Source: a virus. From it: a stretch of DNA of 37,258 nucleotides. The DNA lies in IMG/VR virus record IMGVR_UViG_3300045988_061146. The stretch is one strand, 5' to 3'. This document shows positions 1-37,258 of the stretch, piece after piece (within the stretch, counting starts at the first letter, position 1; every line of letters begins with the position of its first letter). The notes below the pieces were generated by a model. The model was not told the DNA's origin, made no database searches, and saw only the letters and a list, made by a program, of their open reading frames with translations. A program made the position numbers and the translations under genes.

Positions 1-74
1 AACTTCTTCACGTCCAGACCAGCGGTCTTCACGACGATATTTTCAAGCATTTTCCGAACGGTCATTTTCTTCAT
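1..74 (-). CDS. 5' end (about 25 codons) of a hypothetical early gene. It is a duplicate of 37160..37233 caused by the circular-assembly overlap, and the gene continues off the left edge.
   Basis: Bases 1..99 are identical to 37160..37258. The reverse complement of 1..74 encodes MKKMTVRKMLENIVVKTAGLDVKKF, which matches the N-terminus of ORF 36967..37248. Confidence 0.5.
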   Translation of the reverse strand, partial: MKKMTVRKMLENIVVKTAGLDVKK

Positions 75-196
75 AACCGGGACCCCCACATAAAAAAATT
101 AGACTGTGCGAAGGCCGTTGACCTTTGCACAATCTAATATTAAATCCCGCCTACGCAAAAGTCAAGATTAAATTGTAAAAAACCTGAAAAAAGTTT

Positions 197-5001: not shown

Positions 5002-5063
5002 TTCATTTTCTCCCTTCGAAGAATAAGGGCGTCCCCGGTTGTGGGGACGCCCGTTCTTCCTGG

Positions 5064-5248: not shown

Positions 5249-5386
5249 TTAGGCCACCCCGTTTTCCGTGTTATTCTCCGCCTTGATAGCGGATTCGACT
5301 TTCTCGCGAAGTCTGGCGGGAACTTCGTCGATCTTCATGTTCCCGGAAGACACTTCGCGGACGTACAATTCTACAAGTGCGCTCAT
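5249..5386 (-). CDS. Second XkdX-like small protein, 45 aa, paralogous to 5064..5189. It is not in the ORF track because it is under 60 aa.
   Basis: I translated it as MSALVELYVREVSSGNMKIDEVPARLREKVESAIKAENNTENGVA. It shares the motif I/K-IDxVPxxLRExV with its neighbour. Confidence 0.45.
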   Translation of the reverse strand: MSALVELYVREVSSGNMKIDEVPARLREKVESAIKAENNTENGVA

Positions 5387-5429
5387 TTTTGACCTTCTTT
5401 CTTTACGCGAACACGACGTCGCAGATTTC

Positions 5430-5540
5430 CATAATGCACCCTTTCAGAAGTTCATTTTCGGATTGCAGTTGTTCAATGGTCTGTTCCGACTCCGTTTTCG
5501 GGTTCATTGGTACGAAGTCACATTCTTTCGGATCAAACAT
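5430..5540 (-). CDS. Small hypothetical ORF, 36 aa, with a strong RBS
   Basis: GGAGGGAGAACC precedes the ATG. The translation is MFDPKECDFVPMNPKTESEQTIEQLQSENELLKGCH. Confidence 0.3.
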
Positions 5541-5553
5541 GGTTCTCCCTCCT

Positions 5554-7260
5554 TTATGCGAAACGGACCGTCGCCTGGATCACTTCGATCTGCTGGGTCC
5601 CCTTCGTCAGATAGAAGCGATAGGCCAGGCCGAAGCCCTTTGCGACGGTGGTATTCTTGAACGTGTGGACGAACTTCCCGACCTTGCTTGTGACGTCCTC
5701 CCAGACAGGGGCCGTGTCGAACGGGTTGTTCGTGACCTCGACGTGAAGGGTCGCGTCGGCCGGGTGGTCGGTGGGGTACAAGGACAGGAAGACCTTCGTC
5801 ACCTTCGCGTCGGTGGAGATCGCGCGGGACGCGGCGATCCTGTTGACGGTTCGGGTGAAGGTGATCTGGCGGGTTGCGCTTCCGCCAGCTCCGTCAGTGA
5901 CATAGATTTTCAGAACGTGGGTCCCGGTCAAAAGGCGAAGCCACACGCCGGACAGGTCCGCCGTGTTCTGGTGACCGCTGGTCGCCGTATAGGTCCGAAG
6001 GGTGATGGTTTCCGACCCGTTGGTCACGGTTTCCGTAACGGTCAACGTCTGGGACGCCGCTTCGCCGTCGGTGACGGTGTACTGGTGGGAGAACGGGGCC
6101 GTCTTCGCGCCGACATTCTGGTCGCTTCCGCTGATCACGGGGTTCGTGTTGTAGGAAATGGCCTGGGCGTTTCCGGTCCTGTATGCAGATTCAGCGCCGT
6201 TCGCGTCGACCGCCTTCACGCGGACCTGATAGTTTGTCCCACTCGACGGGACCGTGTCTGTGATGGATTTCGCCGACGTGATCCCGATCTGGGTGTAGGC
6301 TCCGGAATCGACCCGGCGTTCCCAGACATAACTGATCGCGTTCCCCTCCGGATCGGTGGACCCGCCGGTGGAGATCGTCAACTTCTGGCCGGCGCGCGGG
6401 GTCCCGTGGGAGATGGACGACGGGGTGGTGGGTGGCTGGTTCCATTGAAGGATATAAGCCCCGTCTGTATCCGTTGTATCAGATACCAGAGTGTCAGGGG
6501 CCAAAAATAAAGCCGGGCGAACGCCGTAGTCGCCGCCGCACGCACTGTTCCAGTACAGACTGCCGTCGGAATTGACATTCCGCACGTAGTACGCGTAGCC
6601 GGCGTGCGGGGTCAGAAGCCACCACCACCAGGGGGACGAAGTGTTCAGGTTGGAACTGGTATATTCGGACTTGCTGACCGCTTCCGCCGTCGGGTATGCA
6701 AGGCGGCTGTTGTTGTCGGTGAACAGGGGCCACTTCGTTCCCTCTGCGATCCCGTTTTCGTTGCCCAGGCCGACTTCGGTCATAGTCAGAAGACGGACCT
6801 TCCGCGTGATTCGCTCCGAACCGCCGCCGTCGGTGACGGTGTTTTTCGCGACGGTGATCGTGTCATTCAGAAGGGCGTTTCGGAAGTCGGCTTCGAAGAA
6901 GGACAGGAAGCCGGCTTCGGCCTGGTATTCGTTGTAGTTGGACCAGACGTTCGCGTTATCAGGCGGGGCGTCCTGTCCGTGCTGGGCGCTGTACCAGCCG
7001 CCAGGGCCGGCGGCACTGTTCAGCCATTGAAGAAGGTTCGCCACGGCGGCGCGGTTGTTGCCGTAATTTCTGCGGTCGCTGTTGCTGTTGTTCGGCTCTT
7101 TCGCGTCGAAGCATTTCAGGGAAATAATTCGCTCCGTCACCAGGCCAACGCGGTCGGAAGACTGGCGGCCGACTTTGAAGCGGATCACAGCGCCGTTATA
7201 CTTCGTGTTGACCGATTTCACCACCGCGCCGACGGGCAACGTCGACAATTTTTTCGACAT
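5554..7260 (-). CDS. DGR target protein 1. It has a C-type-lectin/DUF1566-like variable domain (residues about 60-255, VR1 at 217-250) followed by FN3/Ig-like beta domains. It is a putative tail fibre or receptor-binding protein.
   Basis: The motif SSPWWWWLLTPHAGYAYYVRNVNSDGSLYWNSACGGDYGVRPALFL (WW...VRP) is typical of lectin-fold DGR VRs. It contains VR1 (6513..6612). The RBS is AAATGGAGGAATACC followed by ATG. The gene sits in tail-fibre position between the baseplate genes and the lysis cassette. Confidence 0.8.
   Translation of the reverse strand: MSKKLSTLPVGAVVKSVNTKYNGAVIRFKVGRQSSDRVGLVTERIISLKCFDAKEPNNSNSDRRNYGNNRAAVANLLQWLNSAAGPGGWYSAQHGQDAPPDNANVWSNYNEYQAEAGFLSFFEADFRNALLNDTITVAKNTVTDGGGSERITRKVRLLTMTEVGLGNENGIAEGTKWPLFTDNNSRLAYPTAEAVSKSEYTSSNLNTSSPWWWWLLTPHAGYAYYVRNVNSDGSLYWNSACGGDYGVRPALFLAPDTLVSDTTDTDGAYILQWNQPPTTPSSISHGTPRAGQKLTISTGGSTDPEGNAISYVWERRVDSGAYTQIGITSAKSITDTVPSSGTNYQVRVKAVDANGAESAYRTGNAQAISYNTNPVISGSDQNVGAKTAPFSHQYTVTDGEAASQTLTVTETVTNGSETITLRTYTATSGHQNTADLSGVWLRLLTGTHVLKIYVTDGAGGSATRQITFTRTVNRIAASRAISTDAKVTKVFLSLYPTDHPADATLHVEVTNNPFDTAPVWEDVTSKVGKFVHTFKNTTVAKGFGLAYRFYLTKGTQQIEVIQATVRFA
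6513..6612 (-). repeat. DGR variable repeat VR1, cognate to the TR at 8492..8591
   Basis: It is a 100-bp copy of the TR. All 10 mismatches fall at positions that are adenine on the coding (minus) strand of the TR. Confidence 0.85.
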
Positions 7261-8323
7261 GGTATTCCTCCATTTCTTTTTTGAACAGGTCGTAGAACAG
7301 TTCGTTCGTCTGCCTGATCAAGTGATAACTGTTTCCGTGTTCAGCGTGGCCGGTCCAGGAAGAATATGACTGGACCACGGTTTCGAAGTCGATCCGCCCT
7401 TCGTCCAGAAGGTGACGGAACTTCTTCAACTTCCGCCTGATCCGATTCTTGCTGTCGCGGCGTATCTTGCGGACGACTTTCCCGCTGTCCGTCATGTACG
7501 TCCGGAAGCCCAGGAAGTCGATCCCCTGGGTCAGCGGGAACACGGCCGTTTTGTGATTCAACTCCAGCCCCAGCGGGACCAGGAACTTTTTGATTTCTTC
7601 CAGACAGTAAATCAGATAGTCCTTGTCCGGGTGGATCAGGAAGAAGTCGTCCATATATCGGCCGTAAAACTTGATTCCCAGACGTTCCTTGATCATGTGG
7701 TCCAGGCCGGACAGGTACAGGACCGCGAACCATTGTGAAGTGTGGTTCCCGATCGGGATTCCCGGTCCTTCCGTGGAGTCGATAATCAAGTCAAGAAGCC
7801 ACAACACGCCGGGATCGTCGATGATCCGGCGAAGTTGTGACTTCAAAACGTCGTGATTGATACTGTAAAAGTATTTTCTTATGTCACACTTCAAGACCCA
7901 GCCGTCCGCCCCGAACTGCCTGTAATATCGTTGCATGAACGCTTTCAGACGGTCCAGGCCGAAATGTGTTCCTTTGCCTTTCTGACTGGCGTAGTTGTCA
8001 AATATGAACGTCTTCGCAAGGCGCGGTTCCAGGACATTGTCGCATAGGCTGTGCTGAATAATTTTGTCCCGGAAGCCGTTATACATGATCAGGCGTTCCT
8101 TCGGTTCATGGACCAGGAAGTAATTGTAGGGCGAAGGGCGGTATTTCCGCGACGTCAGAAGGAAGTGAAGGGCCATTAGATTTTCCAACAGGTTCGCTTC
8201 GAAACGGACGACAGCGTATTTCCACCGCTTTCCCTTGCACGCTTCCAGATAGGCAGAATAAAGCCGGTTAAAATCTGCCATGACTTCAAAGTCAGAAGGC
8301 GGTTTCTGTTCAGTGTTCTTCAT
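7196..8323 (-). CDS. brt: DGR reverse transcriptase, 375 aa
   Basis: The RT palm motif YMDD (GRYMDDFFLI) and the DGR-specific IGNHTSQ motif are present, in place of the QGxxxSP of retron or group II RTs. It is adjacent to the TR and avd. Confidence 0.9.
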   Translation of the reverse strand: MKNTEQKPPSDFEVMADFNRLYSAYLEACKGKRWKYAVVRFEANLLENLMALHFLLTSRKYRPSPYNYFLVHEPKERLIMYNGFRDKIIQHSLCDNVLEPRLAKTFIFDNYASQKGKGTHFGLDRLKAFMQRYYRQFGADGWVLKCDIRKYFYSINHDVLKSQLRRIIDDPGVLWLLDLIIDSTEGPGIPIGNHTSQWFAVLYLSGLDHMIKERLGIKFYGRYMDDFFLIHPDKDYLIYCLEEIKKFLVPLGLELNHKTAVFPLTQGIDFLGFRTYMTDSGKVVRKIRRDSKNRIRRKLKKFRHLLDEGRIDFETVVQSYSSWTGHAEHGNSYHLIRQTNELFYDLFKKEMEEYHVEKIVDVARRRGGEIGQHEV

Positions 8324-8491
8324 AAAAATCTCCTTACCGCTTATAGTCTGGGCGTCGTACTGCCGAAGCCCTCGCGTCAGTAATCATGTGTTTACCCTGG
8401 CCTTTCCGGCGTCGGGAAGGATATGATCTCCTTTGTTGGGGTACTCTGTTTTCAGGTTCGTCGCCTTACTCGGTCGCGTTTTCCACCAAAT
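8324..8491 (-). ncRNA. Putative DGR spacer (Sp) RNA segment between the TR and the RT gene
   Basis: Its position is equivalent to the Sp region of characterised DGR RNAs and it holds no credible ORF. This is inference only. Confidence 0.3.
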
Positions 8492-8591
8492 CCGGGCGAA
8501 CGCCGTTGTTGCCGTTGTACGCATTGTTCCAGTTCAGACTGCCGTCGGAATTGACATTCCGCACGTTGTTCGCGTTGCCGGCGTTCGGGGT
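8492..8591 (-). repeat. DGR template repeat (TR)
   Basis: It is non-coding and AAC/AAT-rich on the minus strand, and would read TPNAGNANNVRNVNSDGSLNWNNAYNGNNGVRP in the VR frame. It is the consensus copy from which VR1 and VR2 differ only or mostly at adenines. It lies between avd and the RT. Confidence 0.85.
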
Positions 8592-8612
8592 ACAGATCAT
8601 ACCCTAATATCA

Positions 8613-9089
8613 TTAACCTTCCGTCTGGGTGGGCGGCTCCGCGACCGGCGCTTCGGCCTTTTCGGCTTCTTCGGCGGGCGCTTGCTCTGCCTTATACCAG
8701 GCGGCGGCCATGAACTTAACGTCCAGGGTGATCTTCGTCCAGTAGTCGAAGGTCCCTGTGTCGATATAGCCGCGCTTCTTTGACAATTCGATGAAGAACA
8801 GAAGCATTTTACAGGCCGTCAGGGCGTCCCGTTGAAGGGATAGCCGACGGACCTTGTCTTCTTCGTTCTGGATCGGGTAGATTTCATTCGCGGCCAGAAG
8901 TTTTTCATAGATCGACAGAACGTGATCCTGAATCCTGTTGACGATAGTGAAGCGGACCTTCTTCGGGAAGTGCTTCGTGTTGTCGGTCAGGTCCAGGGTG
9001 TAGTCGATCAGTTTTGACGCAACAGGAAGGACGTGAAGGGGACTTTCATTCCCATTCGCCTTCCGCTGATAGTTTTTCCGGGTTCCCAT
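8613..9089 (-). CDS. avd: DGR accessory variability determinant (Avd-like), about 158 aa from the internal M. The ORF-track M at 9188 is an alternative start.
   Basis: It is basic and helical with an Avd-like pattern (LIDYTLDLTDNTKHFPKKVRFTIVNRIQDHVLSIYEKLL ... LQRDALTACKMLLFFIEL). It is immediately upstream of the TR. The RBS is GCGAAGGTGTATCA followed by ATG. Confidence 0.6.
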   Translation of the reverse strand: MGTRKNYQRKANGNESPLHVLPVASKLIDYTLDLTDNTKHFPKKVRFTIVNRIQDHVLSIYEKLLAANEIYPIQNEEDKVRRLSLQRDALTACKMLLFFIELSKKRGYIDTGTFDYWTKITLDVKFMAAAWYKAEQAPAEEAEKAEAPVAEPPTQTEG

Positions 9090-9309
9090 TGATACACCTT
9101 CGCTTCCTGATTCTCTCGACGGTTTCACGCCGTCCGGAATAGTCGAAGCCATAGTCCCGAAGGACGACCGTCTGTTCTTCGCCTTCATAGGTCAAGCCGC
9201 ACAGGACGACGTTGTCGCCCTCACAGCGGCCGCACACGGGCCGAAGTTCCGTGAACAGGTTGGATAATAGGCACGACGTTTCCGGCGGCTTACAGGCGAA
9301 GCGGGTCAT
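9046..9309 (-). CDS. Cys-rich small protein, about 88 aa, a zinc-ribbon candidate. It overlaps the avd 5' end in another frame.
   Basis: MTRFACKPPETSCLLSNLFTELRPVCGRCEGDNVVLCGL. Its start overlaps the upstream stop as ATGA. Confidence 0.35.
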   Translation of the reverse strand: MTRFACKPPETSCLLSNLFTELRPVCGRCEGDNVVLCGLTYEGEEQTVVLRDYGFDYSGRRETVERIRKRRCINGNPEKLSAEGEWE

Positions 9310-28871: not shown

Positions 28872-29231
28872 TCACACGAACGCCTTTGGCGGCGTCACCA
28901 GGTCGGCCGAAGTCGGCCGCCACAGGTGCAAGCATAGGGCGTGGTTGTTGACGTAGTCTTCCTTTGCTGGGTGGTACTCGACAGCCCATTCGTCAGGCTC
29001 GAAGAACATATCCTTGATATGGCACATTTCTTCCCAGGTCGGACAGGTCTTTCGTTTTGTGTTACAAGGGGTAACGCTGACGTGATCCCAGCCGCCGCCG
29101 TTGCTGGCGATCACCATGAAGGACCTTCCGCCCACGAAGACCTTGAAGACGCCGTTATGTTCGTCGCCGGTGCTTCCGAATATATGGCGGGCGTCCACTC
29201 GGTACTTATTCAAATAATTTAGGTTTTTCAC
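28872..29231 (-). CDS. Conserved hypothetical phage protein, 119 aa
   Basis: Complete ORF with coupled start/stop (ATGA). The family was not recognised. Confidence 0.45.
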   Translation of the reverse strand: MKNLNYLNKYRVDARHIFGSTGDEHNGVFKVFVGGRSFMVIASNGGGWDHVSVTPCNTKRKTCPTWEEMCHIKDMFFEPDEWAVEYHPAKEDYVNNHALCLHLWRPTSADLVTPPKAFV

Positions 29232-29683
29232 TTCTTTTCCTCCGTTTTCACCAGCCGGGCCTGTTCCCAGAAGCCGCGCTCATGCGCGGCCTTCTCTTTT
29301 GCGCTTTCCATGACCTTTTCATAGTTCCGGTATCTGGCGCGCTTTGCTTCGGCTCCGGCCAGAATATCTTCAATAACCTGGTCGACCATGTCCGGCGGGT
29401 AGTAGTTCCGGGGGAACCGGCCGGATAGGTCGTTCTTTGGCTCCGTCAGGTTCAGAATGATATTGAACCGATAGGCCAGGTGTTTCTTCCCGGCGTGGTC
29501 TGCGATCCGAAGGCTGTTCGCCACGCCATAGTCGAACTTCAAATAAACGCTGTTAGTGGAATAGGCGTCGTAGCGGTGAATCAGGACCTTCCCGTCCAGC
29601 CGGTCGCACACATACGCCGCCAGGTCCCGGATTTTCTTCGTGTTCTTATTCACAGTCTTCACCTTCTCCATATTTTTGGTCAT
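29228..29683 (-). CDS. Hypothetical protein, about 151 aa from MTKNMEKV
   Basis: The internal start was chosen so the gene does not swallow the real zinc-ribbon gene upstream. The conserved-looking core is LIHRYDAYSTNSVYLKFDYGVANSLRIADHAGK. Confidence 0.4.
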   Translation of the reverse strand: MTKNMEKVKTVNKNTKKIRDLAAYVCDRLDGKVLIHRYDAYSTNSVYLKFDYGVANSLRIADHAGKKHLAYRFNIILNLTEPKNDLSGRFPRNYYPPDMVDQVIEDILAGAEAKRARYRNYEKVMESAKEKAAHERGFWEQARLVKTEEKK

Positions 29684-29915
29684 AGAAGACGCCGTCGAAA
29701 ATGTCGAAGTCGTCTGCGTCCCAGTACGCTTCGCAATCGGAACAAGCGGCGACAGCGACTTCCATTGGTCCGCCTTCGGCCTTTTTGAAGGTCTTCCGAA
29801 GGCGACCATTTCTTCCGACAACATGATCCAGCGAATACTGATACAGGAAGGACACGACGATTTTCCCGCCGCACAGCGGACAGCGGCTTCTTGGTGTGCC
29901 TTCATTTGATTTCAT
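29646..29915 (-). CDS. Zinc-ribbon protein, 89 aa
   Basis: CPLCGGK ... CSDCEAYW paired CxxC motifs. Confidence 0.5.
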   Translation of the reverse strand: MKSNEGTPRSRCPLCGGKIVVSFLYQYSLDHVVGRNGRLRKTFKKAEGGPMEVAVAACSDCEAYWDADDFDIFDGVFYDQKYGEGEDCE

Positions 29916-29921
29916 TCGGTT

Positions 29922-30284
29922 TCACGTCCTCCCCCAGTCTTGGTCCCCAGTTTCGCAAATATGGACGATGTGTTCGCACAGCGCCGGCGGTATTCGCGAC
30001 CGTTCCTTGCTCCCACTCAATCCCTGGGTCCCAGTCTTCGCCCCGCGCGGGGCCGGTATATGGCACGGGTCCCCATTGTGGCACGGTGGCCGGAACTCCG
30101 GGACCGGGTGATTTGTCCAGATGTCGGTCGGCTTCATACGGGTGTCCCCGTATTGGCAGTAGGTTACAGTGAACCGCCGAAGCCCAGACATAAAGTCCAT
30201 TTTCCGCATACCGCCGCGCGGGTTCTCGATGAACCACCAGGTCGGCGACAGCGACATGATCAGCCCGTGGACGTGCAGATTCAC
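29922..30284 (-). CDS. C-terminal half of a compact C5-cytosine DNA methyltransferase-like protein, motifs VI-X
   Basis: FIENPRGG matches the ENV motif. It is followed by RFTVTYCQYGDTRMKPTDIW and a C-terminal RIPPALCEHIV. Confidence 0.65.
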   Translation of the reverse strand: MNLHVHGLIMSLSPTWWFIENPRGGMRKMDFMSGLRRFTVTYCQYGDTRMKPTDIWTNHPVPEFRPPCHNGDPCHIPAPRGAKTGTQGLSGSKERSRIPPALCEHIVHICETGDQDWGRT

Positions 30285-30583
30285 GCGGTCGCAGAACTTG
30301 GCATATTCCGAAACTGCTTCCAGGTTCGTACCCCCCCCGCAGTGCGGCGGCGGTGTCTGCTGATTGCGGCGATACTGTACGTTGCACAGTCAGGGCTTGC
30401 CCAGATCACGTCAGGACGCCCAAACTTCTGAATAATTTCGTCCGGAGTTATTTGAAGGACATCTTTGTAAAGGTCGATATTTTCGAAGGACTTGTCCCAC
30501 TCGACAGAAAAGACTTCATGTCCACGCGCTTCGAACGCCTTCCCGATAGATCGCGTTCCGGCGAATAATTCAAGAACTTTCAT
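30281..30583 (-). CDS. N-terminal half of the same C5-methyltransferase-like protein (motifs I and IV, with an atypical SPDC instead of PCQ). It ends 50 nt after a G8 homopolymer, and its stop overlaps the downstream ATG as ATGA.
   Basis: MKVLELFAGTRS (motif I-like), SVEWDK, and DVIWASPDCATYSIAAIS (a motif IV variant). Confidence 0.65.
   Translation of the reverse strand: MKVLELFAGTRSIGKAFEARGHEVFSVEWDKSFENIDLYKDVLQITPDEIIQKFGRPDVIWASPDCATYSIAAISRHRRRTAGGVRTWKQFRNMPSSATA
30331..30338. repeat. C8/G8 homopolymeric tract inside the methyltransferase N-terminal half
   Basis: ccccccccgc on the plus strand, encoding A-G-G-V (gcg ggg ggg gta) on the minus strand. Confidence 0.6.
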
Positions 30584-30813
30584 TTTGAGTCACCTTCTTC
30601 CGGAATCGGTTCGTAGCAATCACAGCGGACGACGCGATCTTCTTCGTCTGCGCGGATCGGGCCTGGAAGGCCGGCGTCGGCCCTCTCGACCGCCTTCACG
30701 CAGTAGTCGCCTTCGCGCCCTTTGGCGTCGTCCTTGATGAACTGGACGTTCTGGCAGTTCCGACAGGAAAAGGCGTATTTCCACTTCGGAAGGGCCGGTT
30801 TTCTTCTTCTCAT
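30580..30813 (-). CDS. Small Cys-rich zinc-finger protein, 77 aa
   Basis: CRNCQN ... CDCYEP. Confidence 0.45.
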   Translation of the reverse strand: MRRRKPALPKWKYAFSCRNCQNVQFIKDDAKGREGDYCVKAVERADAGLPGPIRADEEDRVVRCDCYEPIPEEGDSK

Positions 30814-31082
30814 GCGCCCACCGCCTTTTCTCCGGCGGCCGTGATCTCCGCGTTCCTGATTTCACACCAGGCGGAAAAGGCCATTTCCCGGACTGTGTCA
30901 GCGGTCAGAAGGACCAGGTATTCGTCGCCGTAGCCGTCTTCGCCGTATATGCGGCCGGCGCGCTCGTTGCACATATCCAGTTTTCGGCGGGCGTACTGTT
31001 CGGCCTGGCCGAAGAAGTCTGGGTCCAGGACAGTTCCCAGGCTTTCTTCGACTCTGGCCTTCAACTCACAGGACCCGATCAT
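30810..31082 (-). CDS. Hypothetical protein, 90 aa
   Basis: A coupled ORF in the early operon. Confidence 0.4.
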   Translation of the reverse strand: MIGSCELKARVEESLGTVLDPDFFGQAEQYARRKLDMCNERAGRIYGEDGYGDEYLVLLTADTVREMAFSAWCEIRNAEITAAGEKAVGA

Positions 31083-31759
31083 TCGTCTTCGTTGTCCTCT
31101 CTGGCGGCGATCCGGCGAAGGACTTCGTTCACAAGTTGCTTCGACGTGAAGCCGGTCAACAGGGCTTCGTCAGACAGTTCGATTTCCTCCTGATCCAGCG
31201 ACAGGCAGATTTCAGAGTCCACGAAAAAAGCCGGGCGAACGCTGTTGTTGCCGTTGTACGCATAGGCCCGGCTCAGACTGCCGCCGGAAGAGACATACCG
31301 CACGCGGTTCGCGCTGCCGGCGGTCGGGGTGATCGTCCATTCCCAGTCGTCGATCTCCAACAGGCCCGCGTCGTAATACTTCCGGACCAGGGGTTCGGGC
31401 AACATGGCGACCTTGCAGACGGCGACGCCGTAACGGTTCGTTCCGTCGTGGTCCTCCAGGCTCCACTCGGCTTCCAGGACCTTGTTCGCCGGGATCACGC
31501 CGGCGTCGTCCAGGGCGGACAGGAAGTCTTCGTTCAGGTCGAACCGAAGGGTGGAGAAGGCGAAGTTATTCGCGGCCGGCTCCGGCTCCATGCGGTTATA
31601 GGTGAATGGCCGGACGGTGAAGGGGCGGTTCCCGATCGGCTCCTTCGCGGCCAGAAGGGTTCGGCCGTCGGTGAAGTGTTCCAGGACGACCACTTCCACG
31701 GGGCCGGCGTTGAAGTAGGCCCCAGGGGCCAGGTTCTTAATTTTTGCGCTTACTGCCAT
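31079..31759 (-). CDS. DGR target protein 2. It is a small stand-alone C-type-lectin-like protein of about 226 aa from the internal M, with VR2 followed by an acidic tail of about 50 aa.
   Basis: It contains the 100-bp VR2, which translates to TPTAGSANRVRYVSSGGSLSRAYAYNGNNSVRPA. The RBS is AGGGAGGAAAACAAA followed by ATG. It sits in the early/replication operon and overlaps the end of rusA. Confidence 0.7.
   Translation of the reverse strand: MAVSAKIKNLAPGAYFNAGPVEVVVLEHFTDGRTLLAAKEPIGNRPFTVRPFTYNRMEPEPAANNFAFSTLRFDLNEDFLSALDDAGVIPANKVLEAEWSLEDHDGTNRYGVAVCKVAMLPEPLVRKYYDAGLLEIDDWEWTITPTAGSANRVRYVSSGGSLSRAYAYNGNNSVRPAFFVDSEICLSLDQEEIELSDEALLTGFTSKQLVNEVLRRIAAREDNEDE
31231..31330 (-). repeat. 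DGR variable repeat VR2 (remote)
   Basis: It is a 100-bp copy of the TR. Twelve of the 14 mismatches fall at TR adenine positions. It shares with VR1 the IMH variant cccggCttt, where the TR has cccggAttt. Coordinates are ±2 nt. Confidence 0.75.
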
Positions 31760-32150
31760 TTTGTTTTCCTCCCTCATATTCTTCGATCGTGACTTCGACG
31801 CGCGGGTTCTTCGGGTCCAGGGCGAAGTCGTCGCTGAATCCTTCAATTTCCGACCAGCCGTCATTTCGAAGGACGCCGGTTTCGACCAGGGCGTCCTGAA
31901 TGAACTTTTTCGCAAAGGCGATATTGTCCTTGTCGCGGCGGCGGCTGGGTTCGACCCACAGGTAGCGGATCACCACAGGACGGGTGAAGCGGACGCCCCG
32001 AAGTTGTGTTCGGATCATGTAGCCGATCGCGTTCTGGGCCTGGCGCTTCATGGAAGCGGCCTTGTACTTGCCCTTGTATGACCGTTCCGCGTCGATGTAC
32101 TCATTCAGTCCCGGCAACAGGCCGGGGATTGTCAGTTTATATTTCTTCAT
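31737..32150 (-). CDS. rusA: RusA-family Holliday junction resolvase, about 137 aa from MKKYKL
   Basis: MKKYKLTIPGLLPGLNEYIDAERSYKGKYKAASMKRQAQN...RRRDKDNIAFAKKFIQDALVETGVLRNDGW. Confidence 0.8.
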   Translation of the reverse strand: MKKYKLTIPGLLPGLNEYIDAERSYKGKYKAASMKRQAQNAIGYMIRTQLRGVRFTRPVVIRYLWVEPSRRRDKDNIAFAKKFIQDALVETGVLRNDGWSEIEGFSDDFALDPKNPRVEVTIEEYEGGKQNGSKRKN

Positions 32151-33043
32151 TGGTCTTGTCCTTTCGTCAGGCCCAGGATTCGCCGGGCGGCGTCCCTTCG
32201 GTCGGTGGCGTTCGCTGTTCTGCGGGACGCTCCGACCATTTTCAGGCGGATCGGACACATTTCCAGGACCCGGTCGTAAATGCGCTTGTAGGCCAGGGAA
32301 GGCGGGTTTTCCAGGTCCTTCAAGGACAGGTTTGTCGTGATGATCACGGGCTTCCCGGACCTTGCCCTGGTGTCGACCACGTTGTAGACCTGTTCGACGG
32401 AATAGGACGTGTCCCGTTCGACGCCCAGGTCGTCGATCACCAGAAGGGAATAGTGTTGAAGGCGGTCGATCCGCTTCTGTCGTTCGTCGTCAAAGGACCC
32501 TTGAAGGCTGTTCAGGATTCGCGGGAAGTTGGTCACGCTGACACTGACCAGCCGTTCCAGAAGGGCGTTCGCGATTGCACAGGCCAGGAAGGACTTCCCG
32601 GTCCCGACGTCGCCATAGAACAGAATCCCGATGTTCTGGGCCTTCATTTCCTCCCAGTTCTCGACGTAGCGGCGACAGACGTCGCTGACCTTTGGGTTCC
32701 GCTGGTCGTCCTGGGCGAAGGTGTATTGCAAATAGGCCGGGTCCGTGATCCCGTCGCGGCGAAGCCGGTCCATTCGTTGCTCAAACTCCCGGCGCTCTCT
32801 GTCGGCCTTCTCTGCGTCGGCTTTTTCCTGGCCGCATTTGCACAGACAGCCGACGCGGATCGTCTTCGCGTCCCGGCCGATGGACGGGACCGCCGGAAGG
32901 GTGACGTCCATTTGCTTCCGTTCGTGGCAGTTGCCACAGCACAGGAAGCCTTCGTCGTCGAAGTAGTCGTCCGGTTCCTGGTTTTGAAGGCTTTTCTGGA
33001 CCATACCGGCCAGAACGTCGCCGATTGCGTTCATAGCGATCAC
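32147..33043 (-). CDS. DnaC/IstB-like helicase loader ATPase with an N-terminal zinc finger
   Basis: Walker A GDVGTGKSFLACAIAN, Walker B LLVIDDLG, and an N-terminal CCGNC...CLCKCG. Confidence 0.85.
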   Translation of the reverse strand: MIAMNAIGDVLAGMVQKSLQNQEPDDYFDDEGFLCCGNCHERKQMDVTLPAVPSIGRDAKTIRVGCLCKCGQEKADAEKADRERREFEQRMDRLRRDGITDPAYLQYTFAQDDQRNPKVSDVCRRYVENWEEMKAQNIGILFYGDVGTGKSFLACAIANALLERLVSVSVTNFPRILNSLQGSFDDERQKRIDRLQHYSLLVIDDLGVERDTSYSVEQVYNVVDTRARSGKPVIITTNLSLKDLENPPSLAYKRIYDRVLEMCPIRLKMVGASRRTANATDRRDAARRILGLTKGQDQ

Positions 33044-33819
33044 CGTCCTTCCAGGAAGTCTTCGTCGTCACCATAGTCCTTCTTCGGCACGGCTCCCTTC
33101 GGGGGCTGGGACGGTACGTCAGGCCGGTCGTCTTCCTCCCAGCGGCGGCCGCGAATGAACGTGGCCGGGTAGCAGATAAACGATCCGCCGTCCTTCGTCC
33201 ACTGGTCACAGGTCTTCCAGCGTTCCACGCCGGCGACGATCAGTTCGACCAGGTCGTCGTCCGGGTTCAGTTGGCCCCAGGCTTTCAGGGCGTCCTGTTT
33301 TCCGACCCGGCGCGGATATACAGCCCAGAAGCGATCAAAACCGCGCGGTGTCCCCGTCGCCCCGGTTGGGCGCGTTCCCGTTTCTCGTTCCTCGTTCTCG
33401 TTTACGTTTTCGTTCTCGTTTACGGGGACTTTTGATTTCATTTGATTTCCTTTCCTTTGATTGCAAGTGTTATCAAATGAAACAGGAAGGGGGAACTTGC
33501 TTTTCTTCGCTCTCTGTTGCTGGTGCTTGTCCCACGACATAAGTTTCAGGTATTGCTTCCCGTCCTCGCTGGCCGTGTAGGTTCCGACCATTCCGGCGGC
33601 GACCAGTTCAGACAGCCAGGCCCGGATTTTCTGTTCCTTCGGCGGGTCCAGGGGGAAGCACACGGACGCCAGGATTCGCGGATTTCCGTAGTACAGGCCG
33701 AAGTCGTCCGCCTTGACCACCAGTCGCCAGAAAAGGCGCTCGGCGTCCGCGCTCACCTCCGACAGCGATTCGCTGGTAGTGATTGATTCTTTGATTATGC
33801 GGCTCGGCACGTTTGCCAC
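33040..33819 (-). CDS. Phage replisome organiser / DnaD-like replication initiation protein
   Basis: A replisome-organiser-like N-terminal domain (FWRLVVKADDFGLYYGNPRILAS), a central low-complexity NENENVNENEE stretch, and a position upstream of the DnaC-like loader. Confidence 0.65.
   Translation of the reverse strand: MANVPSRIIKESITTSESLSEVSADAERLFWRLVVKADDFGLYYGNPRILASVCFPLDPPKEQKIRAWLSELVAAGMVGTYTASEDGKQYLKLMSWDKHQQQRAKKSKFPLPVSFDNTCNQRKGNQMKSKVPVNENENVNENEERETGTRPTGATGTPRGFDRFWAVYPRRVGKQDALKAWGQLNPDDDLVELIVAGVERWKTCDQWTKDGGSFICYPATFIRGRRWEEDDRPDVPSQPPKGAVPKKDYGDDEDFLEGR
33370..33430. repeat. Iteron-like direct repeats inside the replisome-organiser gene: cgttctcgtttacg twice with a 4-nt spacer, preceded by a degenerate copy
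   Basis: Read directly from the sequence. This is a candidate phage replication origin. Confidence 0.4.
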
Positions 33820-33825
33820 CTCCTT

Positions 33826-34677
33826 TTACAATGCTTTTTGACAGGTCCGACAGGCTTCGCGACCATATTTCCGGACGGAATAGTCCTGTTCGGCCTTTGT
33901 GATTGGTTTCCCACAGATCGGGCAGACTGCCCCGTTCTCTGCCTGGGGCGCTGGTGTACCCGCTGGCGCGCCCTGGCGGCCCCTGGGGGCCTGTTTGCCC
34001 TGTCCCTGGGTGTTTCCCTGGGTGGTTGTTCCCTGGCCGCCCTGGGCTGTCTGTGGCGGTCCCTGGACCCTCTTGTTCATGTCGAACCGGACGTTTCCGT
34101 TCCGGTCCGCGATCACCAGTTCGCAAATCTCCCGGCGGTCGTTATAGGCGACGTGGGTGACGGTGAAGCGGGTGTTCGAATAGCATTTCAGGACTTCCTT
34201 CCGTCCGTTCTGGCCTTCGAAATAGAACTCGTTGTCGGCCAGTTCGACATAGATGAAGGGGCCTGTGTAGAGTTCGCGGCCGATCCCCACGTTGAAGCCG
34301 GCGCGCTTGAAGGCGTCGGACGCCTGGCCTTTTTCTTTCTCGGTGTTGCTCTCGACGCCGACGTCCTGTTTCCGGACCCAGGCGCGCTTCTCTGCGTCCC
34401 AGATGTCGATATTACAAAACAGGTTCCCGTTGATCACTTCATGGGTTCGTTGCCAGTTCCCAGGGCCGAAGACCTGGTCAAGAATCCGCATATCGACGCG
34501 GGCGTCCTTGTAAAGCAACAGGACAGCACCGACGCGGCCTGTTTTCGCGCGGCTGACGCTCTGAACGCGACATTCGATGTCTTTTTCCGTCAGAAGGGGA
34601 ATGTCGTTCCTGACGGCCGCTGGCGGGTCCAGGGCGGCCTGTTCGGCCGCCTGGGTGGTCGTTTTCTTATCTGCCAT
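33826..34677 (-). CDS. Rad52/Sak-family single-strand annealing protein with a Gln/Gly-rich linker and a C-terminal zinc ribbon
   Basis: IECRVQS...VLLLYKDARVDMRILDQVFGPGNWQ matches the Rad52 N-terminal signature. The C-terminus is CPICGKP...CRTCQ. Confidence 0.7.
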   Translation of the reverse strand: MADKKTTTQAAEQAALDPPAAVRNDIPLLTEKDIECRVQSVSRAKTGRVGAVLLLYKDARVDMRILDQVFGPGNWQRTHEVINGNLFCNIDIWDAEKRAWVRKQDVGVESNTEKEKGQASDAFKRAGFNVGIGRELYTGPFIYVELADNEFYFEGQNGRKEVLKCYSNTRFTVTHVAYNDRREICELVIADRNGNVRFDMNKRVQGPPQTAQGGQGTTTQGNTQGQGKQAPRGRQGAPAGTPAPQAENGAVCPICGKPITKAEQDYSVRKYGREACRTCQKAL

Positions 34678-36678: not shown

Positions 36679-36973
36679 TTGCATTTCCCTCCTTCTTTCG
36701 TCCACGGCGGCGAAGGCCCTCCTGGACCCGCTTCTGGGCCAGTTCCGGGTCATACGCCGGGCGGAAGTTCTTGTCCAGGGTGACGCCGTCCTGGCCGCGC
36801 TTCAACTCGGTATAGACGGTGGTTCGCGACACGCCGATTTTCTGGGCGATTTCGCCGGCGATCGCCCCGTTCGCATACATGGAAGCGATCGTCTTTCGGT
36901 CGTCGAACTCGATCGTTTTGAACTGTCTTGCCACGTTTTCACCTTCTTTCTTTTCCTTTGGCGGCGTCACCAA
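36671..36973 (-). CDS. Stand-alone HTH_38-type DNA-binding protein that resembles the N-terminal HTH of the IS30 transposase. It may start at an internal GTG near 36934.
   Basis: IASMYANGAIAGEIAQKIGVSRTTVYTELKRG compared with the transposase sequence IEAFLKCGKSVQEIADEIGVHRNTIYNELKRG. Confidence 0.5.
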   Translation of the reverse strand: MVTPPKEKKEGENVARQFKTIEFDDRKTIASMYANGAIAGEIAQKIGVSRTTVYTELKRGQDGVTLDKNFRPAYDPELAQKRVQEGLRRRGRKKEGNANV

Positions 36974-37233
36974 AGGTTTTTGTCGGGGTCCCCGTTGGTC
37001 TGCTCAACGTCCGGGTTGTAGATTACAGTGACGACGTCTTCGTAACGCTTCGCGGCCACGATTTCGACTTCCCACAGGACATTCCACGTCGCGACCTTGC
37101 AGATCAAATCGACCGCAAAGTCAGCCGTGACGACTTCGCCGTCCATAGACACCAGGTAGAACTTCTTCACGTCCAGACCAGCGGTCTTCACGACGATATT
37201 TTCAAGCATTTTCCGAACGGTCATTTTCTTCAT
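36967..37233 (-). CDS. Hypothetical early protein, about 88 aa from MKKMTVRK
   Basis: Its first 25 codons are duplicated at window positions 1..74 because of the assembly overlap. Confidence 0.4.
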   Translation of the reverse strand: MKKMTVRKMLENIVVKTAGLDVKKFYLVSMDGEVVTADFAVDLICKVATWNVLWEVEIVAAKRYEDVVTVIYNPDVEQTNGDPDKNLW

Positions 37234-37258
37234 AACCGGGACCCCCACATAAAAAAAT

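Follow-up and report, generated by a model that had tools for sequence, protein, structure and literature searches.

Two-target diversity-generating retroelements (DGRs) of the tentaclin type have been published for the gut phages nd12 (OR777946) and nd4 (OR777945) (PMC10743442). DGRs with one large and one small DUF6273 target are also described for the Faecalibacterium phages Lelie and CP11, and for Toutatis and Brigit (PMC11792537). The two-target DUF6273 DGR is an already described type, and the element analyzed here is a further example. It is carried by a stretch of 37,258 nucleotides (IMG/VR record IMGVR_UViG_3300045988_061146; hereafter, the window), the complete 37.2-kb genome of a temperate gut myovirus with an IS30-like transposase as its integration enzyme. 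The region very probably constitutes a complete DGR with two targets that operates by the mechanism proposed below. The cassette is complete and comprises an Avd gene, a duplex-bracketed template repeat (TR), a reverse transcriptase (RT) gene, a 568-aa tentaclin target and a remote 226-aa DUF6273 target. The features are as follows.

8613–9188, minus strand: avd, accessory variability determinant, an ORF of 191 aa (PHROG phrog_3206 'Avd protein of DGR', E 2.2e-27)
8594–8605, minus strand: 5' arm of a 12-bp long-range RNA duplex, AGGGTATGATCT, ending 2 nt upstream of the TR
8488–8591, minus strand: non-coding TR of 104 nt with avd on one side and the RT gene on the other; the IMH* marker is the A at 8491
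8324–8487, minus strand: spacer from the TR to the RT start (alignment, RNAalifold and pair counts)
8418–8429, minus strand: 3' arm of the 12-bp long-range duplex, AGATCATATCCT, in the spacer
7196–8323, minus strand: DGR reverse transcriptase, 375 aa (Pfam RVT_1, E 1.7e-15; phrog_1423, E 3e-135)
5554–7260, minus strand: target gene 1, 568 aa, 'tentaclin' type, with a 65-nt overlap between its start and the end of the RT gene
6509–6612, minus strand: variable region VR1, encoding aa 217–251 of target 1 (repeat search and per-base tally)
31079–31759, minus strand: target gene 2, a small DUF6273 protein of 226 aa (Pfam DUF6273 in its C-terminal part, E 9.6e-6; phrog_9958, E 1.9e-40)
31227–31330, minus strand: variable region VR2, encoding aa 144–178 of target 2 (repeat search and per-base tally)

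The best PDB match of the RT is the bRT protein of Bordetella phage BPP-1 (8ub7_A, E 4.5e-43). In an alignment with bRT, the GIPIGNHTSQ (IGxxxSQ) and YMDD motifs and the equivalent of R74 are conserved. The avd product matches Pfam bAvd at an E value of 0.0011, under the family cut-off, and has no PDB sequence match. The Avd-like part of the ORF spans residues 41–179, and the true avd start may therefore be the internal methionine at residue 34.

As in the window, the RT genes of nd12 and nd4 are followed by a tentaclin target gene, whose start overlaps the RT end, and then by holin and amidase genes (PMC10743442). The second, small DUF6273 target is likewise encoded many kilobases away. Target 1 is 45 and 44% identical to its nd12 and nd4 counterparts, respectively, over 98% of its length, and the corresponding identity of target 2 is 31–36%. 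However, megablast detects no nucleotide-level similarity to these phages, and the window phage is a 37-kb myovirus with probable Flavonifractor-type hosts. The host lead consists of a Flavonifractor plautii MAG protein that is 86% identical to target 2 and an integrated relative. The nd12 system also differs in its TR sequence and in the TR/VR 3' boundary, which is C/T at +5 in nd12 but A/C at +1 after GCCCGG in the window. The Faecalibacterium phages are temperate phages of gut Oscillospiraceae whose two VRs share a single TR, and in both of their targets the VR occupies the C-terminal end of DUF6273, as in the window (PMC11792537). Those phages carry phiC31-type or lambda-type integrases instead of an IS30-like transposase. 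Their protein similarity to the window phage is only distant (FP_Brigit, 34% identity over 77% of target 1). In contrast to the prototype, the DGR of BPP-1 (mtd-avd-TR-brt), the adjacent target gene of the window lies downstream of the RT gene rather than upstream of avd, two targets are present, the VR is internal to the protein and no cruciform is detectable 3' of the VR. A megablast search of positions 5400–9300 against INPHARED phages returned no match, and relatives came only from protein searches and IMG/VR.

The original prediction had aligned the TR (8492–8591) with VR1 (6513–6612) and counted 10 mismatches, all at TR adenines. A repeat search located the repeat at these positions within a three-copy family (6509–6612, 8488–8591 and 31227–31330). 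A per-base tally of the 100-mers on the coding minus strand yielded 11 mismatches rather than 10. The confinement to adenines stood, with 11 of 11 mismatches at TR adenines (A>T in five cases, A>G in five and A>C in one) and none at a TR C, G or T in the pairwise alignment that had been proposed as a check. The earlier figure of 10 equals the count of codons affected, as two of the substitutions share a single Asn codon (AAC to GGC). Given the composition of the TR 100-mer (28 A, 32 C, 28 G and 12 T), the chance of finding every one of the 11 mismatches on A is 1.5e-7. Over the full 104 nt, VR1 and the TR differ at 12 positions, all of them TR adenines, including a fixed C at 6512 opposite TR 8491.

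The translations quoted earlier for the TR, TPNAGNANNVRNVNSDGSLNWNNAYNGNNGVRP, and for VR1, TPHAGYAYYVRNVNSDGSLYWNSACGGDYGVRPA, are correct, and the listed VR1 amino-acid changes match those derived again here. The predicted Asn-codon tract is present, as 12 of the 34 TR codons in the VR frame are AAY. Adenine occupies no third codon position, and no TR codon can be converted to a stop codon by adenine substitution. The 3'-flank difference at position 8491 (cccggAttt in the TR and cccggCttt in the VR) is also real and recurs in VR2 and in every related contig. The 3' end of the TR is GC-rich and devoid of adenine (GGCGTTCGCCCGG), and the base that follows is C in every one of the 11 VRs and A in every one of the 7 TRs. 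Position 8491 never behaves as the other adenines do, which supports its reading as the IMH/IMH* distinction. The IMH and IMH* of BPP-1 differ at 5 positions in 21 nt, whereas a single position differs here, within a 4-nt tail.

The third copy, VR2, was absent from the original prediction. Of the 14 differences between VR2 and the TR, 12 are at adenines (P = 1.8e-6 for at least 12 of 14 differences on A), and counting the fixed C opposite TR 8491 raises the adenine figure to 13. The two non-adenine differences correspond to TR positions 8531 (T>C) and 8504 (G>A) and are explicable by ordinary drift since the last homing event or by rare RT errors. The last six TR adenines are unchanged in VR2.

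A search with the adenine-masked TR pattern recovered 10 IMG/VR contigs that are 95–99% identical to the window; the same pattern had no match in one-genome-per-species bacterial contigs. Eleven contigs at this level of identity contributed 7 TR copies without a single difference and 11 VR copies (7 of VR1 and 4 of VR2) that all differ from one another. TR adenines account for 150 of the 158 substitutions in these VRs, leaving 8 elsewhere, and 28 of the 29 TR adenines vary. At the protein level, the 16 highest-entropy columns of target 1 all fall within residues 219–245 among 121 homologues, and the hypervariable columns are those whose TR codons contain adenine. The high-entropy columns of target 2 coincide with the TR adenine codons in 121 sequences (the window protein and 120 homologues). 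The 90%-identity clusters of the target 1 and target 2 families contain 6067 and 3809 distinct sequences, respectively. Ungapped comparisons of the flank upstream of VR1 were distorted by indels and were set aside.

The substitution pattern bears on whether the three copies merely diverged as an ordinary repeat, through diversifying selection and recombination between lineages and without reverse transcription. Three repeat copies do exist, their targets are plausibly under diversifying selection, and a second TR allele in close relatives indicates that the repeat family is not absolutely static. However, neither selection nor recombination can account for 150 of 158 substitutions at positions where a non-coding third copy has A, and the adenine tally effectively refutes ordinary divergence, to which we assign a vanishingly small probability. 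It would also leave unexplained the invariance of the TR and its construction from AAY codons without a path to a stop codon, and a DGR-clade RT gene and an Avd gene flank the TR. The original preference for adenine-specific mutagenic homing over ordinary repeat divergence is thus supported by the recurrent pattern in relatives and by the adjacent intact machinery.

Within the mutagenic-homing reading, VR1 could be the sole live target and VR2 either a former target in decay or a paralogous segment matched by chance. The two non-adenine changes in the VR2 of the window and the location of VR2 in the replication module, far from the cassette, favor this possibility. However, no two of the four VR2 copies from near-identical contigs are alike, 57 of their 59 substitutions lie at adenines distributed along the whole TR length, and the same hypervariable columns are found in the 121 target 2 sequences. 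Moreover, all 11 VR copies, including the four of VR2, retain the recipient-type C opposite TR 8491 and the GC-rich 3' end. A single live target is therefore very improbable, and both VRs are regarded as recipients below.

The same set of genomes addresses whether the element is a relic that diversified in the past, undergoes no homing in this genome now and displays VR differences as frozen history. The non-adenine substitutions and the six unchanged terminal adenines of VR2 are compatible with a relic. No cruciform-type inverted repeat was found directly 3' of VR1 or VR2, the nearest being weak ones ∼40–60 nt downstream; a hairpin or cruciform at this location is present in BPP-1 and many other DGRs but is not universal. 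On the opposite side, the element retains an intact RT, Avd and TR, seven contigs share one TR sequence, and VR1 and VR2 are completely different between genomes that are 95–99% identical overall, which indicates homing within the very recent history of the phage species. In addition, active DGRs are reported for two induced Faecalibacterium phages on the basis of read-level variation (PMC11792537). A relic is improbable, and a functional DGR is the preferred reading.

The TR is embedded in an RNA with conserved secondary structure. RNAalifold predicts a 12-bp long-range duplex that brackets the TR, and in 45 distinct related loci, whose RTs are 58–99% identical, 99.6% of the cells of this duplex are paired. 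Compensatory double changes occur in 8 of the 12 pairs, and slid controls pair at only 42–52%. An upstream/downstream 'cPRT Stop' duplex is known for BPP-1 and many other DGRs and is matched by the TR-bracketing duplex of the window (bioRxiv 10.1101/2023.10.23.563531). The spacer additionally contains a hairpin at 8466–8454, followed by GAAAACAGAG (3 bp with 2 covarying pairs), and a 4-bp helix between 8383–8380 and 8337–8334 in which all four pairs covary. Both the core of the spacer RNA and the duplex around the TR are preserved in nd12 and nd4, where compensatory changes occur.

Comparative analysis alone was informative for this RNA, as the single-sequence fold of the TR-spacer segment is indistinguishable from those of shuffled sequences (z −1.45). 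A stem just 3' of the TR (8490–8485 with 8474–8469) has one covarying pair and one pair that is broken in 21 of 45 sequences, and it is not claimed. A pairing between the TR 3' end and the spacer noted by eye (GGCGUUCG with CGACGCC) is not conserved in nd12 and was dropped. None of the priming site or adenosine, a TR:spacer template-primer duplex and an Avd-binding stem-loop could be placed confidently in the TR-spacer RNA, and Rfam searches at gathering thresholds found no family in the window.

The gene for target 1 lies between tail-fibre and lysis genes. The protein consists of a DUF6273 C-type-lectin-like domain (residues 1–275) and Ig-like β domains (residues 280–568). Target 1 thereby has the N-terminal C-type-lectin domain with the VR on a β-hairpin that is characteristic of tentaclins. 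Tentaclins also possess a C-terminal 'anchor' Ig-like domain with a family consensus motif; the alignment of target 1 to the nd12 and nd4 tentaclins extends to residues 554–555 of 568. In an AF2 model of full-length target 1 built with 121 homologues of 81–94% identity, residues 280–568 are all-β with pLDDT values mostly of 70–95, and the N-terminal domain has a pLDDT below 50. A weak match to Big_9 (E 6e-4) and a full-length match to phrog_10993 'Hoc-like' were also obtained. With a diverse alignment seeded from the Bacillus phage AR9 homologue, the target fold was modeled at a pLDDT of 94.7. The modeled fold is CLec/FGE-like and places the variable residues C-terminally in the domain, as in the C-type-lectin DGR proteins Mtd and TvpA. 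This high-confidence model links DUF6273 both to the C-type-lectin fold and to a domain of known structure in an IgA peptidase from a gut bacterium. Identity to Treponema denticola TvpA (2Y3C) and other FGE/C-lec-fold DGR variable proteins is 11–15%, and the Pfam family differs, being DUF6273 here; TvpA is a bacterial lipoprotein and not a phage protein. We know of no reported DGR link for the DUF6273 domain of the Thomasclavelia ramosa IgA peptidase. In that enzyme (9QA6), the domain is N-terminal within a secreted bacterial metallopeptidase, unlike the phage DGR targets of the window, and has no significant effect on catalytic efficiency (PMC12402451).

Target 2 has homologues of 225–227 aa. 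The distance to its gene is 22.7 kb within the window and 14.4 kb when taken around the circular genome. The start of the target 2 gene overlaps the end of a RusA-like gene inside a replication/recombination module and adjoins an accessory-gene hot spot, and this position is kept in relatives. When the two target families are compared as profiles, the only similarity detected surrounds the VR (target 2 residues 128–191 and target 1 residues 200–264), so that whole-domain paralogy of targets 1 and 2 is not shown by sequence. By eye, target 2 has no obvious signal peptide or membrane segment. It is doubtful that target 2 is a soluble protein expressed with the replication/recombination module rather than a virion or receptor-binding protein. 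If it were, the DGR would diversify an effector that acts inside the cell or is released, such as a protein that binds a variable host defence or takeover factor. To our knowledge, such use of a phage DGR is undescribed.

By analogy with the BPP-1 paradigm, we infer cis-primed cDNA synthesis, a role for the duplex, IMH-directed homing and present-day activity. The avd-TR-spacer-RT cassette would be transcribed from the minus strand, and the RNA would fold such that the 12-bp duplex closes the TR into a loop. An RT-Avd complex would reverse-transcribe the TR, copying C, G and U faithfully and inserting any base opposite adenines. The mutagenized cDNA would then replace the homologous 104-nt variable region in either target gene. 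The GC-rich 3' end and the VR C at the position of TR A 8491 would mark the VRs as recipients and keep the TR invariant. The outcome may be up to ∼3e16 peptide variants on the β-hairpin region of the C-type-lectin-like (DUF6273) domain in two proteins.

The present element leaves the understanding of how DGRs work unchanged, and it was correctly recognizable as a DGR from the raw sequence alone. It provides a well-delimited two-target tentaclin-type DGR with exact TR, VR1 and VR2 boundaries and a fixed IMH/IMH* marker, together with a covariation-supported TR-bracketing RNA duplex in a lineage distant from BPP-1. The phage lineage is very abundant in human-gut data, and thousands of distinct VR variants exist in public collections, which makes the element a convenient natural system for the study of DGR target-site choice between two VRs.

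A 104-nt direct repeat is present in three copies in the window (6509-6612, 8488-8591 and 31227-31330), all read on the minus strand. The template repeat (TR; 8591..8488) is rich in adenine, with 28 A within the 100-mer 8492-8591, and translates in the frame of the variable repeat (VR) as TPNAGNANNVRNVNSDGSLNWNNAYNGNNGVRP. A per-base tally of this 100-mer against VR1 (6612..6509) gives 11 mismatches, all 11 of which are located at TR adenines (5 A>T, 5 A>G and 1 A>C), and the probability that 11 random mismatches would all land on 28 adenines is 1.5e-7. The restriction of TR/VR1 differences to adenines proposed in the original prediction is thus borne out. Its count of 10 mismatches corresponds to the number of changed codons, one of which is altered from AAC to GGC; the quoted translations and amino-acid changes are correct on re-translation. 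An additional A>C difference is observed in the 3' flank at 8491. The third repeat copy, VR2 (31330..31227), which was absent from the prediction as written, displays 12 adenine and 2 non-adenine differences from the TR, in addition to the A>C already noted for 8491. The TR contains 12 AAY codons, lacks adenine at third codon positions and cannot yield a stop codon through adenine substitution. Its theoretical repertoire is ~3e16 peptides.

The VR variation that deep sequencing had been expected to reveal was found in a cross-sample equivalent. A search of IMG/VR with the TR pattern, in which adenines were replaced by N, retrieved ten contigs that are 95-99% identical to the window where they overlap. 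The window and these contigs contain seven identical TR copies, and their seven VR1 and four VR2 copies are all different. Relative to the TR, 150 of the 158 substitutions in the 11 VR copies occur at adenines (74 A>G, 38 A>C and 38 A>T), and 28 of the 29 TR adenines vary in at least one VR copy. Position 8491, unlike the remaining adenines, is invariably A in the seven TRs and C in the 11 VRs; it is therefore outside the transferred tract as a fixed donor/recipient marker, in agreement with the IMH/IMH* assignment made earlier for this flank. The transfer boundary must lie within the adenine-free GGCGTTCGCCCGG directly upstream of 8491. The few non-adenine substitutions in VR1 tend to adjoin mutated adenines, as in two related contigs (L001, 3087-3190; L008, 1508-1405). 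In the VR1 copies of these contigs, TR index 41 (the T of an AAT codon) is altered independently, and the T of a TAC codon is altered jointly with its A.

Diversification at the same sites is also observed in more distant homologues. Target 1 was aligned with 121 homologues (81-94% identical) and target 2 with 120 (121 sequences in total), and in both alignments the highest-entropy columns are found only in the VR, at codons with adenine in the TR. The corresponding 90%-identity clusters contain 6067 (target 1) and 3809 (target 2) distinct sequences. As judged from these comparisons, the pattern shows that both VRs have recently diversified in the phage species, and the element of the window genome itself may be active. 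The template itself is also altered within the species. In relatives with a 99% identical reverse transcriptase (RT; loci L016 and L018, columns 101-120 of the 45-locus alignment), a second TR allele replaces CTG AAC TGG AAC with TTG AGC AAC AAC. This allele encodes Asn in place of Trp and adds one diversifiable codon, which accounts for an additional variable column.

The repeats belong to a diversity-generating retroelement (DGR) with the following features.

9188..8613, minus strand: Avd homologue (PHROG 'Avd protein of DGR', E 2e-27; weak Pfam bAvd match)
8591..8488, minus strand: TR, after avd
Between TR and RT gene, minus strand: spacer, 164 nt
8323..7196, minus strand: RT, 375 aa
7260..5554, minus strand: target 1 gene, 568 aa, overlapping the RT gene end by 65 nt
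6612..6509, minus strand: VR1, coding for target 1 residues 217-251
Downstream of target 1, minus strand: small ORFs, holins and LysM amidase
31759..31079, minus strand: target 2 gene, 226 aa, containing VR2

Baseplate and tail-fibre genes are located upstream of avd, and nearly every gene of the window is on the minus strand. The two ends of the window (1-99 and 37160-37258) form an exact direct repeat of 99 nt, and its genes include those for terminase, portal, sheath, tape measure and baseplate proteins. Together these features indicate that the window represents the whole genome, assembled as a circle, of a small myovirus of ~37.16 kb (~37,159 bp). The 304-nt 'gap' after target 1 (5250-5553) contains two small ORFs of ~45 aa that are absent from the 50-aa ORF list, and a good ribosome-binding site precedes the first of them (AAGGAGG...ATG at ~5539). 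Further downstream, in the holin/lysis cluster, a perfect GC-rich palindromic hairpin (5027-5052; GGGCGTCCCC...GGGGACGCCC) has a terminator score on both strands.

The best PDB relative of the RT is the RT of Bordetella phage BPP-1 (bRT; 8ub7, E 4.5e-43), and the DGR-specific GIPIG-x-x-TSQ motif, YMDD and the arginine equivalent to bRT R74 all match. RNA structure around the TR was compared using 80 loci with RTs 58-99% identical, from which 45 distinct regions between the avd end and the RT start were aligned. RNAalifold predicted a 12-bp duplex in which AGGGTATGATCT (8605..8594), separated from the TR by 2 nt, pairs with AGATCATATCCT in the spacer (8429..8418), and counts of paired positions confirmed it. 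In the 45 regions, 99.6% of the cells of this duplex are paired, compared with 42-52% in slid controls, and compensatory double changes are found in 8 of the 12 pairs. The duplex brackets the TR and corresponds to the 'cPRT Stop' element of the BPP-1 ribonucleoprotein, in which the segments on either side of the TR pair and which has been predicted in 207 other DGRs (bioRxiv 10.1101/2023.10.23.563531). Two further covarying elements are conserved: a short hairpin in the spacer (8466..8454), after which comes the A-rich run GAAAACAGAG, and a helix close to where the RT gene begins. The comparison yielded no assignment for the priming adenosine, the template-primer duplex or the Avd-binding stem-loop.

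Target 1 matches Pfam DUF6273 at residues 40-254 (E 5e-31) and, over its full length, a PHROG annotated 'Hoc-like head decoration'. The named proteins most similar to it are the first targets of nd12 and nd4, with 45% and 44% identity, respectively, across 98% of the length. With a diverse alignment, AF2 gave a model with a pLDDT of 94.7 and a pTM of 0.90, after an initial model had failed in the N-terminal domain. Residues 1-290 (window 6391-7260) were set against the N-terminal DUF6273 domain of the Thomasclavelia ramosa IgA peptidase (PDB 9qa6; PMC12402451).

In a profile comparison, the similarity between the two targets is confined to the surroundings of the VR; the identity of target 2 to its counterparts in nd4 and nd12 is 31-36%. 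At its start the target 2 gene overlaps the end of the gene for a RusA-like resolvase, and its neighbours are DnaC-like, replication-initiator and Erf-like genes and a split DNA methyltransferase (29922-34677). A replication/recombination module is an unusual site for a presumed receptor-binding protein. The methyltransferase ORFs (30583-30281 and 30284-29922) overlap in GTGA and look like either a frameshifted or a two-part enzyme. Region 28875-30589, which holds these two ORFs and a 225-aa ORF without a PHROG match, has little or no match in three otherwise 95-99% identical contigs, one of which (L002) matches 29247-29667 only, at 91%; the region looks like an accessory-gene hot spot. Because its gene is inside the replication module and beside this hot spot, target 2 may not be a virion protein.

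One contig (267 kb) of a Flavonifractor plautii MAG carries a target-2 homologue with 86% identity, and the position of target 2 is conserved in a prophage of a Flavonifractor plautii MAG (L012). A bacterial contig of 299.6 kb carries another relative with the same DGR layout (L013), integrated beside GntR and ABC-transporter genes. The sole recombinase found in the window is an IS30-like transposase (197-1378; phrog_4646, with HTH_38 and rve in relatives), and the phage probably integrates by this DDE transposase rather than by a tyrosine or serine integrase. The N-terminal region of the transposase gene (1104-1162) and a 100-aa ORF at the opposite genome end (36795-36853) share a 59-nt direct repeat at 73% identity, which may reflect two related DNA-binding domains.

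The defining DGR features testable in silico are all present except the cruciform, which is non-universal; an inverted-repeat search found no cruciform-type repeat directly 3' of VR1 or VR2. Beyond the sequence pattern, cis-primed cDNA synthesis, a role for the duplex, IMH-directed replacement and present-day activity would follow by analogy with BPP-1. The avd-TR-RT-tentaclin order with a remote small DUF6273 target is the same as that published for nd4 and nd12 (PMC10743442), and the published Faecalibacterium phages Lelie and CP11 likewise combine a large with a small DUF6273 target (PMC11792537). Megablast found no nucleotide similarity to INPHARED phages, and the lineage is not yet described by name. 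The original identification of a DGR is therefore correct, and the element is of an already published type in a new phage lineage. Its least conventional feature is the position of the second target.
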